NCBI GenBank assembly: GCA_016209685.1
Contig: JACQVQ010000012.1
Span: forward strand, 823 to 64,822
Origin: Planctomycetota bacterium
Lineage (GTDB): Bacteria; Planctomycetota; Brocadiia; Brocadiales; Bathyanammoxibiaceae
Length of the DNA: 64,000 bases
Direction: 5' to 3'
Part shown: positions 16,344 to 50,967 of the stretch, piece after piece
How the letters are laid out: the number at the start of each line of letters is the position of its first letter
Numbering within the stretch: position 1 is the stretch's first letter
Program-made: the position numbers and the translations under genes
Notes under the pieces: model-generated
The model's database searches: none
What the model saw: the letters and a program-made list of their open reading frames with translations, nothing else
Told to the model about the DNA's origin: nothing

Positions 16344-18704
16344 ATGACTACCCTTCATACATTCCTTGCCGCAGTTACCCTGCCAGAAGAGGGTCTTGGA
16401 CGTGGGGTATCCCACTCACTCCCACATATCTCCATCCCCCACAGTCTGAAACTCCTGTACGGCCTGGTAAAGGCACACCCGCAGTACGTGGTGGCCTTAC
16501 TGCTGATTGCGGCCATAGGCATCATCATAGGGATAGCCGTAGGAGTAGCCAGGGGGCGAGTGAAGAGATTAAGGCGACTGGCCCTCTTTAAACCTGTGTC
16601 CAGACTGGCCCCCACTGACCTGGGCATTGAAAATTATCTGGGCCAGGGGTGTTACATAAGAAGGGAAAGCGACGATACCCTGGCAGGTCTCTTGGAAGAA
16701 GGGGCGTCGGCTATCCTTGTCGTAGGAAAGACAGGCTCAGGAAAGACCCGTGCGGTCTTTGAGGCCCTGAAAGAAGGTAGGGGCAGGGTAACCCTGCCCC
16801 TACACCCTGCCGGGCATGTAGAGGGACATGGCAGGGCCTTGCCCGATAAAGGAAACGAAGACTACTACATACTAGTCCCCAGGCCCAGACTGACTTCCTT
16901 GAGGGAACTCTCGGTGCCTGGGTTGTCCAGGAAAAGGATTGTCTTATTTCTGGACGACCTCCCCAGGTATATCAAGAAACTAGACGCAGCCGGGTTATTC
17001 AGACAAATGGAAGGGAAGGCAAAGGGGTTAGTGCTCCTTGCCACTTGCTCGCCTGATAAGCTTCCACTCCTGGAAAGAGAAGCACCTGAGTTCCTGAGCC
17101 TCTTCAGGCCCAAGAACCGTATCTCCCTGAGGGACCTTGCCCCTGCCGAACAAAAATCCCTTGCCAGTGCCCTGGGCCGTGACGAAACAACCTCCCTGAC
17201 CAACGCAACCCCCGCCTCTCTCACCCTGAATCTGGCCGAAATGAAGGAGCGATACAAAGACTCCGGGGATGCCAGGCTGATTATCCACTCCCTGCTCCTC
17301 CTACACAGTGCATTTATATCTATCTGTCGTGAGTCCCTGGTAAGGGAGGTCTGTGGACGGGTCTTTAACAAGACGTTCTCACGCTCCCAGTGGAGAGGCG
17401 CCTTGAAGGGACTAATTGCCAGGGGCCTTATAGCAAGAGGCATTGCACCCGGCAAAGAGGGCACACTGGAGATTTACGAGGGGTACCTGGAAGAAGGATT
17501 CGTAGACGACTATACCCCCAGGGAAGAGGATACGGACGCCTTGCAGGAAGTCCTGCTCAAATCAAGGGACTGGGAGGGGTTATTTTCCATAGGGGTGTAC
17601 CGCAGTACCAAGGGGCAGTGGGAAAAGGCCCTCCAGGTACTGGAAAGGGCCGTAGAGGTGAACCCCCATTCCGGCGAGATACGCTATCTCCTCGGTGAGG
17701 CCCATCAGCGGACAGGCATGATAGAAAAGGCCCTGGAGGCCTATAAAGAGGTAGTAAGACTGGACAAACGTAATCCGAAGGCCCTCTATGCCCTTGGGAC
17801 TATCTACAATGAGATGTATATGATAAAGGAGGCCGTAGAGGCCCTGAGGCGGGTCGTGCTACTGGACCCTAATCACTACGGCGCCTGTTTCCAGTTAGCC
17901 ATGGCCTTTGAGAAGGCTGGTATGATAGAAGAATGCCTGGCAATGCTCCGGGAGGCCACAAGTATTGACCCTAATTACACCGAGGCCCATCGTTATCTGG
18001 CGGGCCTGTATCAGAAGAGGGGACAGTACGGAGAGGCCCTGCAGGAATACAGGGAGTTAGTCAGGATCAACCCCAACGACGAAGAGTCACACCTTGTACT
18101 GGCTACGGCCTACAATAAAATCGGCAGGGTAAATGAGGCCGTAACAGAGTTAAAGGAACTCATCAGGATAAACCCCGCCAATCTCAAGGCCCATTACACC
18201 CTGGCCCTAATCTACTATAAGAAAGGCATGCTGGAGGAGGCCATTAAGGAGTTCAAAGACGTGCTCATCCTTAACCCTGAGGACCACACTACACGTTCAA
18301 ATCTTGCCCTGGCCTACTCCAAGAAGAACCTGTTAGATGAGGCCATAGAGGAATACAAAGAGATTCTACGCCTGAGACCCCAGGAGATAGGGGCCTGCTA
18401 CAACCTGGCCCAGACCTACGAGAAGAAAGGGTACAGGGAGGAGGCCGTGGCAAGGTATAAAGAGGTGATTGGGCTTAACCCGGAACATGCCGAGGCCCAC
18501 TATAGGCTGGCCTTGATCAATCTAAAGGGTGAGTTGCTGGAAGAGGCCATGCATGGGTTCAGAGAGGTGATAAGGCTAAGGCCCACCCACGCCATGGCAC
18601 ACGGCCAGCTCGCCATGATTTACCAGAAGATTGGTCTCACGACAGAGGCAAGGAAGGAATACAGGTTGTACGAACGACTAAAGGCCCCCACAACCAGGGG
18701 CTAG
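16344..18704 (+). CDS. membrane-anchored P-loop NTPase with C-terminal TPR array (STAND-like architecture)
   Basis: One predicted TM helix (YVVALLLIAAIGIIIGIAVGVA), Walker A VVGKTGSGKTR, Walker B-like IVLFLDDLP, a helical middle region, then about 10-11 TPR units. Confidence 0.75.
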   Translation: MTTLHTFLAAVTLPEEGLGRGVSHSLPHISIPHSLKLLYGLVKAHPQYVVALLLIAAIGIIIGIAVGVARGRVKRLRRLALFKPVSRLAPTDLGIENYLGQGCYIRRESDDTLAGLLEEGASAILVVGKTGSGKTRAVFEALKEGRGRVTLPLHPAGHVEGHGRALPDKGNEDYYILVPRPRLTSLRELSVPGLSRKRIVLFLDDLPRYIKKLDAAGLFRQMEGKAKGLVLLATCSPDKLPLLEREAPEFLSLFRPKNRISLRDLAPAEQKSLASALGRDETTSLTNATPASLTLNLAEMKERYKDSGDARLIIHSLLLLHSAFISICRESLVREVCGRVFNKTFSRSQWRGALKGLIARGLIARGIAPGKEGTLEIYEGYLEEGFVDDYTPREEDTDALQEVLLKSRDWEGLFSIGVYRSTKGQWEKALQVLERAVEVNPHSGEIRYLLGEAHQRTGMIEKALEAYKEVVRLDKRNPKALYALGTIYNEMYMIKEAVEALRRVVLLDPNHYGACFQLAMAFEKAGMIEECLAMLREATSIDPNYTEAHRYLAGLYQKRGQYGEALQEYRELVRINPNDEESHLVLATAYNKIGRVNEAVTELKELIRINPANLKAHYTLALIYYKKGMLEEAIKEFKDVLILNPEDHTTRSNLALAYSKKNLLDEAIEEYKEILRLRPQEIGACYNLAQTYEKKGYREEAVARYKEVIGLNPEHAEAHYRLALINLKGELLEEAMHGFREVIRLRPTHAMAHGQLAMIYQKIGLTTEARKEYRLYERLKAPTTRG

Positions 18705-28799: not shown

Positions 28800-28823
28800 T
28801 CCCCTCTTTTTAGAGGGGACACA

Positions 28824-28872
28824 CCCCTACCCCCTAATCCCTACCCCCTAATCCCTACCCCCTACCCCCTAG
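28824..28872. repeat. C-rich heptamer run (single arm), preceded by CCCCTCTTTTTAGAGGGG hairpin
   Basis: CCCCTAC CCCCTAA TCCCTAC CCCCTAA TCCCTAC CCCCTAC CCCCTAG. Overlaps the moaA stop. Confidence 0.8.
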
Positions 28873-29906
28873 CCACCTATCCGGCACATGACGGCCTCGC
28901 CTGTACCAGGGTGCTCGGCAGGCTTCAGGACGGCGGCCTCCAGGAAGGCCCTCTTTATAGCCTCTGGTGTGGGATTACCCCTGAGGATGGCCCTTATGTC
29001 CACCTCGCCCCCAGCCAGGAGGCATGCCCTAAGTTTGCCATCTGAGGTGAGCCTGAGGCGGTTGCAGTCCCCACAGAAGGGCTGACTTACGGGAGAGATG
29101 AAGCCCAGGGTGCCTACGGCCCCCTTCAGTCTGTAAAGTCTGGCAGGTCCACGTAGGGGCAGTAGGGACAGGTCCCGCCCAAAAGATGGCGGATTTTCAA
29201 CTTTAGACCTGTCCCTATTGGACGGACCTAAAGGTCTGTTCCTACCTACAGGTATTAATTCCCCAAGACGGCTTATCCTTTCCATGACCTCTTTGCTGGG
29301 CACGAACTTGCGCTCTTCAATCATCCTGCATCCGAAGGCCATATACTCTATGAACCTCACCTCCAGTGGTTTCTCCAGGCTCATACGGGCAAACTCTTCT
29401 ACCTCATCCTCATTGGTGCCCCGCATAACTACCATATTTACCTTTGTCTCCTGGAACCCCACGTGCAGTGCCTCCTCTATGCCCTGGAGGACGTCTGAGA
29501 TGGAGCCCCCCCCTGTAATCTGGCGGAAGCGGTCTGCCCTGAGGCTGTCCAGGCTGACGTTCAACCGCATGAGACCCGCCTCCTTTAGGACGGCGGCATA
29601 TTGTCTCAAGAGGACGCCGTTGGTAGTCATGGCCAGGTCTTCTATCCCAGGGATTTTACTCAGGGAGGCAACGAGACGTTCTACGTTTCTCCTCGTGAGG
29701 GGTTCGCCACCTGTCAGCCTGATACTCCGTATGCCCAGTTCGGCACCGTACTTTACTACAGTGGCTATCTCCTCAAAGCTAAGGATATCCTTACGCTCCA
29801 GATGAGGGACACCCTGGGAGGGCCTACAGTAGACGCAGGAGAGGTTGCAGAGGTCTGTTACCGAGACCCTTAGACGTGTTACATTTCTTTGAAAGCGGTC
29901 CTGCAT
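28869..29906 (-). CDS. moaA: GTP 3',8-cyclase (molybdenum cofactor biosynthesis protein A) with ~30-aa internal insertion
   Basis: CNLSCVYCRP radical SAM motif, GGEPL, C-terminal FCGDCNRLRLTSDGKLRACL cluster. Confidence 0.9.
   Translation of the reverse strand: MQDRFQRNVTRLRVSVTDLCNLSCVYCRPSQGVPHLERKDILSFEEIATVVKYGAELGIRSIRLTGGEPLTRRNVERLVASLSKIPGIEDLAMTTNGVLLRQYAAVLKEAGLMRLNVSLDSLRADRFRQITGGGSISDVLQGIEEALHVGFQETKVNMVVMRGTNEDEVEEFARMSLEKPLEVRFIEYMAFGCRMIEERKFVPSKEVMERISRLGELIPVGRNRPLGPSNRDRSKVENPPSFGRDLSLLPLRGPARLYRLKGAVGTLGFISPVSQPFCGDCNRLRLTSDGKLRACLLAGGEVDIRAILRGNPTPEAIKRAFLEAAVLKPAEHPGTGEAVMCRIGG
29160..29255. repeat. two tandem REP-like palindromes in frame inside moaA
   Basis: Minus strand reads GTAGGAACAGACCTTTAGGTCCGTCC, then TAGGGACAGGTC-(CCGCCatcttttGGGCGG)-GACCTGTCCCTAC. 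Encodes GRNRPLGPSNRDRSKVENPPSFGRDLSLLPL. Confidence 0.75.
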
Positions 29907-29915
29907 TTTTAGACA

Positions 29916-29969
29916 AAGAATTCAGAATACAGGATTCTGAATTCTGCATTCTGAACGCTGAATTCTGGG
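29916..29969. repeat. heptamer-periodic hairpin element (CAGAATT flavour)
   Basis: AAAGAATTCAGAATACAGGATTCTGAATTCTGCATTCTGAACGCTGAATTCTGGG. Confidence 0.8.
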
Positions 29970-29970
29970 T

Positions 29971-31263
29971 TCAATACCCATGCCCCCCGCCGTGTCCGTC
30001 GTATCCACCACCATGCCCACCACCACTGCCATGACCACCCCCACCGTGTCCATCGTATCCACCACCTCCATGTCCGTCGTATCCCCCACCATGACCACCA
30101 CTACCACTGCCATGACTACCGCCTCCGTGACCACCAGGGATGCCCATCCTGGCAGAACTTGCTGGTTCTGCCAGCCCCTGGGGGATAAAGCGATAGACCC
30201 ACACATGGGCCTCGTCGCTCCTGAAGACCGGCTGGAAGTAGCTGAGTCCCTGCCCATGACCTGTACTGAGTGGAAGGAGTTTGAGTATGAGCGCCTCCTT
30301 CATATCAGTGTTTCCATAATCCCCCAGATACCAGAGGGCGTAGTACTTTGGGAATATCTGGGCATAGTAGGAGGTGATGCCGCTATTCTTTATCCACTGG
30401 TTTATAAAGGACATATCTCCGGCCACGCCTGTTACTGACATGGGCTTGATATTCTTTGACTCTAGTTTCAAATCTGCCTCTGCGAGACGGCTCATGGCAT
30501 TTATCTCCTGGAAGTCTTCAGAACTCACCAGGATGTAGACTGGCCTGTCTGCCGGGGTTAATAGCCCCAGTATCTCCTTTGCCTCGGTCTCTTTGGAGCA
30601 GAAGAACCTGGCCATATCTTTAGTCTTCGTGTCATCCTCAAGACCTTCCCTGTCCTTAATCCACTTAAGGAGGTAATCCAGGGTGGCCCTCTCGTGTCTG
30701 CCCTTAGGCACAGAGAGGCCCTTCAAGAGCCCCATGCTAGGCTTGGAGGTCAAGGGTTCCCTTCCAGTGAACAACTTTACCCTCTTCCCATGATGCCACC
30801 AGCAGAGGACTAGAGAGTCCCTCTCCGTATTATTCTTTATAAAGTCATAGGCCTTGAGCCAGGCAGGAGAGGCAAAGGATACCTGCTTCCCCGAGGAGAC
30901 CTCTGAATAATCTGTGTAGTAAATAAGGGGCTCGTACGCCTCCCCCCCGGAACGATACCTGAGGCGGTACTCTACGGCCATCAGAGAATCCTTGGGCAGG
31001 GTAATAGTGCTTTCGTCGGGAGTGGCCCCGCCACCTTCCCTGGTGATGGCAAGGTCTGAAGTCAACCTCTTCTCATATTTTATCACCTTCTCAACAGGCA
31101 CTACTGAGGTAGGGAGGAGGATCTGTGTGAAATTTTCCGGGGCAACCTCTTCTACCTTTATGTACTCGTAAAGGCTCTGGGCTAAGACCACTTGAGGCAA
31201 AGACAAGCTAAGCCCCATAAGAAACAGTAGACAGCAGAATATCTTCATAGGTTTGGTTATCAT
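29971..31263 (-). CDS. secreted protein of unknown function with C-terminal Gly/His-rich repeat tail
   Basis: Signal peptide MKIFCCLLFLMGLSLSLPQVVLAQ. The last ~55 aa are GGHGGGSHGSGSGGHGGGYDGHGGGGYDGHGGGGHGSGGGHGGGYDGHGGGHGY. Confidence 0.7.
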   Translation of the reverse strand: MITKPMKIFCCLLFLMGLSLSLPQVVLAQSLYEYIKVEEVAPENFTQILLPTSVVPVEKVIKYEKRLTSDLAITREGGGATPDESTITLPKDSLMAVEYRLRYRSGGEAYEPLIYYTDYSEVSSGKQVSFASPAWLKAYDFIKNNTERDSLVLCWWHHGKRVKLFTGREPLTSKPSMGLLKGLSVPKGRHERATLDYLLKWIKDREGLEDDTKTKDMARFFCSKETEAKEILGLLTPADRPVYILVSSEDFQEINAMSRLAEADLKLESKNIKPMSVTGVAGDMSFINQWIKNSGITSYYAQIFPKYYALWYLGDYGNTDMKEALILKLLPLSTGHGQGLSYFQPVFRSDEAHVWVYRFIPQGLAEPASSARMGIPGGHGGGSHGSGSGGHGGGYDGHGGGGYDGHGGGGHGSGGGHGGGYDGHGGGHGY

Positions 31264-34281: not shown

Positions 34282-36567
34282 TTATAACATACTATAGGGG
34301 TCTATATCTATGGTAATCCTTACGCCTCCAGTAGTACCACCAGGGATTCCCTCCAGGAGTTCTTTTATTGCCTCACTGTGGGGGGACCTGAGACTCAACT
34401 GCCAGCGGAATTGGTTCTTGATTCTAGGAATAGGGGCTGGGGCGGGACCTACCACCTCCACCCCTGGGGTGGTAACCTTTGTCAGTAGTCCGCCTGGGAT
34501 GGATGCCACCTGCCTCAATGCCTCAGCCAGCTTTTGGGCCCTATCCTTCACCCTCTCTTCTTTCTGCCCTACAAGGACTATCCTGGCCATATAACCAAAA
34601 GGAGGATAACCCAGTTCCCTGCGGTACTCCAGTTCCCTATCAGCAAAACCCTCATAATCATGGGCGGCCGCCGCCAGGATGGCATACTGTCTGGGGTTAA
34701 AGGTCTGGACTACCACCCTGCCTCCCTTTGGACCTCTCCCCGCCCGGCCTGCTACCTGGGCCAGGAGCTGGAAGGTCCTCTCCACGGCCCTGAAGTCGGG
34801 CAGATTCAATATGGTATCGGCCGATATGACCCCCACCAGGGTAACGTTGGGGAGGTCTAGCCCCTTGGCAATCATCTGAGTACCTACAAGAATCTGAACC
34901 TCCCCCCGCTCAAAAGATTTGAGGGCCTTCGCATGGGCGTTCCTCCCCTTCATGGAGTCACTATCCATCCTCAGGGCCTTGTACCCGGGGAAGTAGCGGC
35001 CCATCTCCTCCTCAATCCTCTCCGTACCCAACCCAAAATAATTCAGCCTCGCCCCGGCGCACTCCGGGCAATTCTCCTGTGGCTTGACTTCATAGAAACA
35101 GTAATGGCAGATGGTGCTATGCTGTCTCTTGTGATACGTCAGGGGTATGTCGCACCTTTTACATCTCAAGACATACCCACACCTTGGACAGCTCACGAAG
35201 GGAGAAAAACCCCTCCGGTTCAGGAAGAGGAGGGCCTGCTCTCCCTTTGAGAGGCACTCCTTCATGTAGAGCTCCAGTCTGCGGGATATGAGCCTCGTAT
35301 GCCTCCCTTCGTGGAAGCCCTCCTTCATGTCCACTATCTCTACCCGTGGCAAGGGACGCTGCCCAATCCTCTGGCTGAGGATTGCCCTCTGGTACCTCCC
35401 CATCAGGGCGTTAAAATAGGTCTCCAGTGAGGGCGTTGCAGAGCCCAGGATGACCACTGCCCCTTCCTCTCTTGCCCTCATAAGGGCCACTTCTCTGGCA
35501 TGATAACGTGGAGAGGTCTCCTGCTTATAAGTTACCTCATGCTCCTCATCCACCACGATGAGACCCAGGTTCTCTACCGGGGCAAAGACCGCCGAACGTG
35601 CCCCAATCACCACCCTGGCCTTCCCTCCTCTTATGGCCTGCCACTGGTCGTAACGCTCGGCCCCGGTAAGGTGGCTGTGCAGTACCGCTATTATGTTACC
35701 AAAACGCCCACCATAGCGTTCTATGGCCTGGGGGGTAAGGGATATCTCAGGCACCAGGACTATTGCCCCACGCCCCAGGGCTAACACCTCTTCTATGGCC
35801 CTCAGGTACACCTCTGTCTTCCCACTGCCTGTAACCCCCTGGAGGAGTACGGTGGGGGCGACCGGCCGGTCGCCCCTACACAGAGAGAACTGTGTCTTTA
35901 TAAGGCTAAGGGCCTGCCCTTGTTCGGAGGTGAGTTCGGGTTTCGGCCTTTGGCTTTCAGAGATGGACAGACCTGAAGGTCTGTCCCTACACTCGGGCTG
36001 TTCGTATATCTCTACAAGCCCCTTACTGGAGAGGCTATTTAATCCACCCAGGTTACAGCCGCTCTGGCGGGAAAGTTCCTTCAGAGGTATGCCGTTATTA
36101 GACTCCAGGAGTACTTCAAGGGCCCTGGCCTGCCTTGGGGCCTTTTTTCTGAGACCTTCCAGCGCCTCCAGGATGAGAACCCTATCTTTTGTAAGCCTGA
36201 GGGCCTTAAGGGTCTGTAGGGCCCCTCCTCTGGCAGACTTGCGCTCCCCCTTTACGGCCGCCGGAAGGGCCGCTTCCATAGCCTCCCCCCAGGTACAACG
36301 ATAGTACCTGGCTATCTCCCGGGTGAGACGTAACATCTTCTCCCCCAGTAGGGGCTGGTGGTCCAGTACCTCTTTTATTTCCTTGAGTTCCATGGCTACA
36401 GGGGCGTCTGGAAAACCCACACAGTAGCCATTCACCAGCCTATGCCCGAGGGGCACCCTTACCCGGCTTCCTATCCTTAGCTCAGGCACAAGGGTGTCGG
36501 GGACCTTATAATGTAAGGTCTTGTCAAGAGGGGCGTTAACCACCACCTCTGCATAGTTATGATACAC
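34282..36567 (-). CDS. priA: primosomal protein N' (replication restart helicase)
   Basis: LLQGVTGSGKTEVY Walker A, VVDEEHE, Cys-rich zinc module CPRCG...CKRC...CHYC...CPEC. Confidence 0.95.
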   Translation of the reverse strand: MYHNYAEVVVNAPLDKTLHYKVPDTLVPELRIGSRVRVPLGHRLVNGYCVGFPDAPVAMELKEIKEVLDHQPLLGEKMLRLTREIARYYRCTWGEAMEAALPAAVKGERKSARGGALQTLKALRLTKDRVLILEALEGLRKKAPRQARALEVLLESNNGIPLKELSRQSGCNLGGLNSLSSKGLVEIYEQPECRDRPSGLSISESQRPKPELTSEQGQALSLIKTQFSLCRGDRPVAPTVLLQGVTGSGKTEVYLRAIEEVLALGRGAIVLVPEISLTPQAIERYGGRFGNIIAVLHSHLTGAERYDQWQAIRGGKARVVIGARSAVFAPVENLGLIVVDEEHEVTYKQETSPRYHAREVALMRAREEGAVVILGSATPSLETYFNALMGRYQRAILSQRIGQRPLPRVEIVDMKEGFHEGRHTRLISRRLELYMKECLSKGEQALLFLNRRGFSPFVSCPRCGYVLRCKRCDIPLTYHKRQHSTICHYCFYEVKPQENCPECAGARLNYFGLGTERIEEEMGRYFPGYKALRMDSDSMKGRNAHAKALKSFERGEVQILVGTQMIAKGLDLPNVTLVGVISADTILNLPDFRAVERTFQLLAQVAGRAGRGPKGGRVVVQTFNPRQYAILAAAAHDYEGFADRELEYRRELGYPPFGYMARIVLVGQKEERVKDRAQKLAEALRQVASIPGGLLTKVTTPGVEVVGPAPAPIPRIKNQFRWQLSLRSPHSEAIKELLEGIPGGTTGGVRITIDIDPYSML
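35961..35990. repeat. REP-like palindrome in frame inside priA
   Basis: Minus strand reads GTAGGGACAGACCTTCAGGTCTGTCC and encodes CRDRPSGLS in the linker before the helicase core. Same family as 50788 and the moaA insert. Confidence 0.75.
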
Positions 36568-50787: not shown

Positions 50788-50967
50788 GTAGGGACAGACC
50801 TTTAGGTCTGTCCATTATTATTTCCCCTCTAGAAAGAGGGGATAAAGGGGTGTGTACTTTACCCTGCACCCTTGTGGTGCAGGGCCTACCCCCTAGTTCA
50901 TGTAGGGTGCGTTGTAACGCACCATTTATATTTTCCCGTTCTCAACTAGCGGTGCGTCCAGACGCAC
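50788..50967. repeat. cluster of five different palindromic REP-type units
   Basis: GTAGGGACAGACCTTTAGGTCTGTCC (50788); CCCCTCTAGAAAGAGGGG (50824); CCCTGCACCCTTGTGGTGCAGGG (50862); GTAGGGTGCGTTGTAACGCACC (50902); GGTGCGTCCAGACGCAC (50951). Confidence 0.8.

Follow-up and report, generated by a model that had tools for sequence, protein, structure and literature searches.

GTAG-tagged palindromic repeats nested in frame within the moaA gene of a groundwater planctomycete

The window (the whole stretch of DNA analysed here, 64,000 nt long) is part of contig C11 in a 2.02-Mb assembly of 14 contigs, and its host is a groundwater planctomycete. It contains the molybdenum-cofactor gene moaA (GTP 3',8-cyclase; 28869-29906, minus strand), which appears in the list of open reading frames as an intact frame of 345 aa and is present in one copy in the genome. 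The Pfam domains Radical_SAM (residues 14-174) and Mob_synth_C (residues 252-332) were both found above cut-off, the protein matched S. aureus MoaA in the PDB (1TV7, E 2e-54), and the nearest named matches were MoaA proteins of Candidatus Brocadiales or Brocadiaceae MAGs. The radical-SAM CxxxCxxC motif, the C-terminal three-Cys cluster and the GG end are all in place, and the residues concerned (C20/C24/C27, C278/C281/C295 and the terminal G344-G345) are invariant in 29 orthologs. At 28800-28880, a heptamer array (GGGGTAG / GGGATTA repeats) has the TAG stop of moaA as its first unit. After it comes a second repeat type, CCCCTCTAAAAAGAGGGGATTAAGGGGTGTG, and the moaA loop of another strain, P0014, contains a relative of this second element in frame, as PLPPFEKGGLKGDF. 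The spacer upstream of the gene (29907-29970) is made of CAGAATT/CAGAATG heptamers, which together form a long palindrome. The next gene upstream (29971-31263, minus strand), named HaoB_nitrify (PF27869) in relatives, encodes a Gly/His/Tyr-rich tail at its end (HGGGSHGSGSGGHGGGYDGHGGGG...) that could bind metal.

The moaA gene carries 31 extra codons (codons 221-251; 93 nt at 29154-29246, minus strand), which encode the peptide GRNRPLGPSNRDRSKVENPPSFGRDLSLLPL. An earlier note on this DNA had described a palindromic repeat insertion in frame in moaA and had placed it after the radical-SAM core, ahead of the C-terminal cluster region, and both statements held: the segment sits in the linker that joins the core to the C-terminal domain, as seen from the Pfam domains and from the alignment with S. 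aureus MoaA. On the coding strand, the layout reads CCT GTAG, GTAGGAACAGACCTTTAGGTCCGTCC, AATAG, GGACAGGTC TAAA, GTTGAAAATCCGCCATCTTTTGGGCGG, GACCTGTCC CTAC, TGCCCCTAC, GTGG. The first unit, GTAGGAACAGACCTTTAGGTCCGTCC (29220-29245, minus strand), is a GTAG-footed palindrome that is identical to its family consensus GTAGGGACAGACCTTYAGGTCTGTCC at 24 of 26 positions. The stem has lost two of its nine pairs, which indicates that the unit is decaying. As the earlier note had stated, it belongs to the same family as an intergenic copy at 50788-50813 (plus strand), which has the consensus sequence. The second unit is a double-foot palindrome, GTAGGGACAGGTC...GACCTGTCCCTAT (29162-29218, plus strand), whose 15-nt arms were 93% complementary in an inverted-repeat search. 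Both units have a 5' GTAG foot and the second has a 3' CTAT/CTAC foot as well. The two units are inverted relative to each other with their GTAG feet pointing outward, so that the arrangement is an inverted REP dimer plus two further pieces rather than the two tandem units described previously. The transcript of the second unit in that description had omitted 13 nt (TAAAGTTGAAAAT).

The two further pieces are a nested module and a remnant. A 27-nt hairpin, GTTGAAAATCCGCCATCTTTTGGGCGG (29175-29201, minus strand), occupies the second unit's loop and encodes VENPPSFGR. This inner CCGCC...GGCGG hairpin is a separate module that recurs elsewhere in the genome, with a copy at C3:164889 (one mismatch) and identical copies at C4:12686 and C10:63568; a genome scan gave 19 matches, about a dozen of which had the CCGCCAT..TTT.GGCGG core. 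Where the module lies in a REP loop, it adjoins the 3' arm. An exact scan of GTDB genomes returned six matches, all in Brocadiales or Planctomycetota MAGs, and a wider distribution of the exact module is not supported by such matches. Next to the second unit are 9 nt, GTAGGGGCA (29153-29161, plus strand; TGCCCCTAC on the coding strand), which correspond to the 3' end of a REP type other than that of the two units and are the remnant of an earlier REP of the GTAGGGGCAC type, whose CTAC provides the conserved Leu-Arg codons of MoaA (CTA CGx). On the basis of the orientation and anatomy of its units, the insert consists of an inverted pair of REPs, the module nested in it, and what is left of the earlier element.

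We made a census of REPs in which a hairpin comes after a GTAGG[GA][AG]C[AG]G head. About 132 loci of several subfamilies were found in the 2.02-Mb genome; they have the traits of the GTAG-tagged REP superfamily, namely an unpaired 5' GTAG foot and a short (20-40 bp) multi-copy palindromic stem-loop. The 26-nt family of the first moaA unit accounts for about 12-14 loci; this copy number, the complementarity of the arms of the second unit and the RNA fold given below set the repeat apart from a chance pattern. Doublets of the GGACAGACC family, to which the moaA units belong, were identified at C2:91869 and C11:349834, and a doublet with the same 27-nt nested module as in moaA at C13:128847. All three, and the moaA insert, show the arrangement of a REPIN, a recurring unit in which a short spacer separates REPs of opposite orientation (Bertels and Rainey 2011, PMC3116915). 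A second module that nests in REP loops, the small hairpin TCCGCCYMAGGCGGA, was observed at many loci of the genome and in strain L017 (P0011), where the moaA REP contains it as TCCGCCCCAGGCAGA.

REPs lay in open frames (40 codons or more in both directions) at 35 of the 132 loci (26.5%), compared with 72.5% of random positions; they are thus still chiefly extragenic, although a large minority is intragenic. Ten hosts were validated with Pfam as real genes, with domains that extend across the REP or lie beside it: an amidohydrolase, a molybdopterin oxidoreductase, QueC, YdjC, Der, ThiE, a pseudouridine synthase, PriA, a P-type ATPase and LeuRS. ClpB (C5:57646) was a false positive of the detector, the sequence being native to ClpB, and was left out. 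Only stop-free frames of the palindromes are in use, and the encoded peptides, CRDRPSGLS among them, recur. In the window, priA contains two in-frame REPs: one of the unit-1 family (35965-35990, minus strand), which encodes CRDRPSGLS and has Pfam PriA domains on both sides, and one of another family, GTAGGGGCGACCGGCCGGTCGCCCCCAC (35852-35879, minus strand), which encodes CRGDRPVAPT. We also observed a REP, GTAGGGGCAGGGTAACCCTGCCCCTAC (16777-16803; peptide GRGRVTLPLH), in a 791-codon open frame whose product by eye resembles a P-loop protein, with TPR-like repeats towards the C-terminus. Another observation concerns an RluD-type pseudouridine synthase of G000 (C8:232754-232860) with two to three consecutive REP-derived segments (VGAGLKPARTGAGVTPAQDEGAGLKPAPT).

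The loop was compared with that of other MoaA proteins. The alignment with S. aureus MoaA runs from residues 2-220 (6-229 in 1TV7) and resumes at residue 255 (238 in 1TV7), leaving about 26 more residues here; S. aureus has eight residues where the insert sits. Outside the small-genome family to which the window belongs, the loop from ...GELIPV to RGPA has 3-4 residues in Brocadia, Kuenenia, Scalindua, Wunengus and Loosdrechtia. The lineage-specific difference of about 30 aa that the earlier note had predicted for an ortholog alignment was therefore found. Inside the family, the loop is hypervariable and occupied in most members, whereas one member, P0020 (323 aa), has a MoaA without the extension.

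The moaA DNA of 17 orthologs was then compared, and four strains whose flanks are 94-98% identical formed a series. The loop contains one REP in G003 (MoaA of 326 aa), the REP dimer in G002 (333 aa), and the dimer with the 27-nt module and the 9-nt remnant in the present genome (345 aa); the G002 doublet is otherwise identical and lacks the module. P0002 (L016; 354 aa) has the same loop as the present genome with 24 nt inside the loop of the module and 3 nt more. Its 24-nt piece, CCTTCGGCAAGCTCAGGACAAGCC (peptide SLRQAQDKP), lies within the 27-nt module and thereby gives three nesting levels in one loop. The steps between alleles (21, 27, 9, 24 and 3 nt) are each divisible by three, and all 11 loop alleles with repeats keep the reading frame and contain no stop codon. 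The alleles show that GTAG REPs in the moaA loop grow by dimerization and nesting without breaking the frame. Such a pattern in eleven alleles is expected if the insert is translated, whereas splicing or ribosomal bypass would not need it; it is this pattern that suggests to us translation of the insert. An intein, an intron and a translational bypass were considered and rejected given the 31-aa size, the in-frame and stop-free alleles, and the lack of an Rfam match in the insert (a scan of 28800-30000 at E<=1 gave two chance-level matches, neither within it).

With regard to the order of events, P0011 and P0012 have a full REP, GTAGGGGCACGGCACGCCGTGCCCCTAC, at the spot of the remnant, in the form GTAGGGGCA(C)...GTGCCCCTAC. 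The end of this REP and the remnant of the present genome have the junction ...CCCCTAC/G (slash, junction) in common, which suggests that the older REP was resident first and was then largely overwritten. A maximum-likelihood tree of the moaA flanks of six close strains was near-star (one inner node, 87/95), so that the order would have to be read from the remnant. No truly empty moaA site was found within the genus.

It should be noted that the source, a metagenome-assembled genome, is rich in short repeats and that strain mixtures were present in the source samples, circumstances under which a repeat could be collapsed into moaA by the assembler. Nevertheless, related in-frame alleles are given by independent ENA, NCBI and Logan assemblies, the exact MoaA protein was found on two contigs, and the contig itself is 362 kb long. 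A gene heading for loss does not fit either: dN/dS of the moaA flanks was 0.05-0.21 in nine comparisons, which included pairs differing in REP content, and the catalytic residues are intact. We therefore consider it extremely unlikely that the insert arose during assembly or that the gene is on its way out, and a reading of moaA as a decaying pseudogene was ruled out on the same values and residues. Taken with the invariant Cys and GG residues and the single copy, the substitution pattern shows a constrained gene whose function appears to be kept.

The structural check of the insertion site agreed with a loop. The AlphaFold2 model of MoaA (mean pLDDT 79, pTM 0.79) matched 2FB2 and 1TV7 outside the insert with TM values of 0.77-0.82; residues 223-251 were modelled as coil with pLDDT <50, between strands 217-219 and 256-260. 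The insert is accordingly rendered by AlphaFold as a disordered loop. These results bear on the question of whether the hairpins have been co-opted, either as mRNA structure at the domain boundary (ribosome pausing or transcript stability) or as a functional peptide linker. The RNA of the 105-nt insert stretch has a strong predicted structure (-45.7 kcal/mol, z = -3.9 vs shuffles), the insert falls exactly at the domain junction, and the loop is occupied in most family members, all of which would speak for such a role. However, the sequence, the length and even the repeat family vary between near-identical strains, the first unit is decaying, the peptide is given no structure in the model, and both P0020 and the other Brocadiales families with their 3-4 residue loop do without any extension. 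Hence, co-option appears very unlikely.

The resident elements also differ in kind between strains. L021 and L007, which both belong to another genus, are 98.7% identical in the moaA flanks, but the former carries a GGACAGACC dimer and the latter a GGGGCGGGG-type REP; L003 and L017 are 97.8% identical and again differ in REP family. G008 has another clean REP type, and P0014 a non-GTAG element (CCCCTC...GGGGG...AAGGGG). Replacement of REPs by those of other families at one site, between near-identical strains, is shown by these allele sequences.

A second reading of this turnover is that the linker is a reused docking site, at which a RAYT-type enzyme or REP-to-REP conversion swaps cassettes at a retained GTAG/CTAC foot; the changes would then be directed rather than independent indels that have passed a filter. 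Several observations point in this direction. The differing REPs of L021 and L007 both start after an identical left junction, CCTT/GTAGGG (slash, junction), and the right foot CTAC of moaA coincides with the conserved Leu-Arg codons, CTAC being present at the right-foot position even in the REP-free moaA of P0013. In der, the REP takes the place of a native 21-nt stretch, which in REP-free relatives ends in CCCTAC, identical to the 3' foot of the REP. Each of the two PriA sites is occupied by a different REP type in the present genome, G002 and G010, and other genera have none. The composite of doublet and module was found again at C13:128847, and REPINs at conserved extragenic positions have been reported to change with the predominant RAYT (REPORTH preprint, 10.1101/2024.10.14.618302). 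On the other hand, a single junction is shared per moaA strain pair, the other being displaced by 12-18 nt. Moreover, the REP dimer of the amidohydrolase gene, which is recent as judged from two congeneric genomes in which the site is empty (net gain 57 nt), was inserted where neither GTAG nor CTAC is present in the empty site. A similar pattern could also arise if REPs attract further REPs and the alleles seen are the survivors in a permissive loop of a rare kind. Anchoring at the GTAG/CTAC foot would thus be partly supported, by der and the right foot of moaA, and we consider the docking reading as a whole less likely than not. If it applied, the moaA linker and the two PriA sites might be reusable docking sites, and smaller modules might enter REP loops site-specifically, giving a 'Russian doll' that nests within itself, is bound to the reading frame and changes much more rapidly than the gene around it; we offer this picture only tentatively.

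Candidate enzymes for REP movement are encoded in the genome. Three loci scored above cut-off for PF01797 (Y1_Tnp). Two ORFs that are distinct from these loci or overlap them, at C8:85489-86079 and C11:254021-254416, have the motifs NH[VL]H, WQ and YIINNP. Their scores with the NCBIfam model NF047646 (REP_Tyr_transpos) were 58.6 and 68.1 bits, below the 80-bit equivalog cut-off. TnpA_REP subclass 2.4, which equals Bertels group 4, is characterized by NH[IFV]H, WQ and YIxNNP in a Y1 HUH protein and by double-foot REPs with 5' GT[AG]G and 3' C[TC]AC feet, and its tnpA_REP genes may contain REPs in frame (Quentin, Siguier, Chandler, Fichant 2018, PMC6006769). Both ORFs agree with this motif set, and the RAYT-like Y1 transposases of the genome themselves carry an in-frame REP, a signature of the subclass. 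The REPs that flank the RAYT genes or lie in frame within them are of the GGGGCGGTTCGCGAACC and GGGGCAGGTTTGAAACC types; no GGACAGACC-type REP was found beside a RAYT gene in the genome. Different REP classes are known to flank orthologous RAYT genes (Nunvar et al. 2013, PMC3686654). Two further Y1_Tnp-like ORFs were observed at C13:65094-65660 (DHVH/WQ/YIHYNP) and C9:115480-115989 (DHQH/WQ/YILDNP), and no GTAG-headed REP of the census lay within 600 nt of either.

We consider that the moaA insert is best explained as a whole as a composite of the genome's own GTAG-tagged REPs, carried as a tolerated and translated passenger, with a probability of roughly 0.85. A REPIN-like inverted dimer of the GGACAGACC family would have landed in an older REP of the linker and replaced most of it, and the 27-nt hairpin module would have been added later, within the second unit's loop. 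Movement and replacement of the hairpins may take place on single-stranded DNA, through RAYT-type Y1 (HUH) enzymes or through recombination or conversion among REP copies, and an existing REP or CTAC foot might favour the next event. Selection on the indispensable single-copy moaA would then keep only stop-free alleles with lengths divisible by three, in a permissive loop, and we propose from this that the insert is translated, disordered and roleless; the peptide would be a disordered surface excursion and a neutral passenger with regard to enzyme function.

The data suggest that selfish hairpins have deeply invaded a compact (2 Mb) genome, lying in frame in moaA, priA, der, leuS, queC, thiE and further core genes, which they do not disable. 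The moaA locus would represent a rare natural time series of REP dynamics under a strict reading-frame filter, with the states of one REP, a dimer, a dimer with a module, a further insert, and another REP family in strains that are ~99% identical. A few defined alleles of this gene make both the movement or replacement of REPs and their anchoring at the GTAG/CTAC foot testable. In addition, it should be considered in annotation that a loop found in only one lineage of MAG proteins can stem from repeats rather than from functional innovation.

Finally, the insert can be compared with systems described before. Like the Rickettsia palindromic elements (RPEs), the units here appear to be selfish palindromes that housekeeping genes tolerate in frame and that are translated into additional peptide at the protein surface. 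RPE-1 has a length of roughly 100-150 bp, and RPEs are, to our knowledge, confined to Rickettsia. The RPEs of R. conorii end in CGTC (Di Nocera 2013, PMC3733652), whereas the units here are 26-29 nt long and have a GTAG foot, and membership of the RPEs was rejected on this foot motif. Of the resemblance drawn in the earlier note, the behaviour as translated selfish hairpins thus appears to stand and kinship does not; the insert is analogous to RPEs without being a member of the family. The same note had held that such an insertion is not normal for REPs. Intragenic GTAG REPs had, however, been catalogued in 2013, as singles and dimers that encode 20-30 aa, often in replication/repair genes, and GTAG REPs were reported in the PVC superphylum, Planctomycetes included (Di Nocera, De Gregorio and Rocco 2013, BMC Genomics 14:522, PMC3733652); in-frame cases in tnpA_REP followed in 2018 (PMC6006769).

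The REPs of the 2013 catalogue share with those in moaA the 5' GTAG foot, the short GC-rich stem-loop, inverted dimers and a position wholly inside ORFs of known proteins, and PriA is a replication/repair host here. In contrast to those cases, the host here belongs to Brocadiales, the target is moaA, three layers are nested (the dimer, the 27-nt module and 24 nt in a sister strain), and strain alleles show stepwise growth and replacement of REP families at one site. The likeness to subclass 2.4 extends to the RAYT motifs and the double-foot REPs, with the difference that the moaA GGACAGACC family adjoins no RAYT gene in this genome. With the REPINs and the REPORTH analysis, the moaA case has in common an inverted REP pair as the unit and a conserved position at which the resident REP type changes. 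The REPINs of those studies, however, are extragenic, come from Pseudomonas and go with group 2/3 RAYTs, whereas the moaA element lies inside an essential coding sequence, so that each change must keep the reading frame. Given the precedents of Di Nocera 2013 and Quentin 2018, the moaA insert represents a known type of event, to which our analysis makes a modest addition: an unusually complete allele series and a clear case of REP-family replacement within an essential coding sequence.
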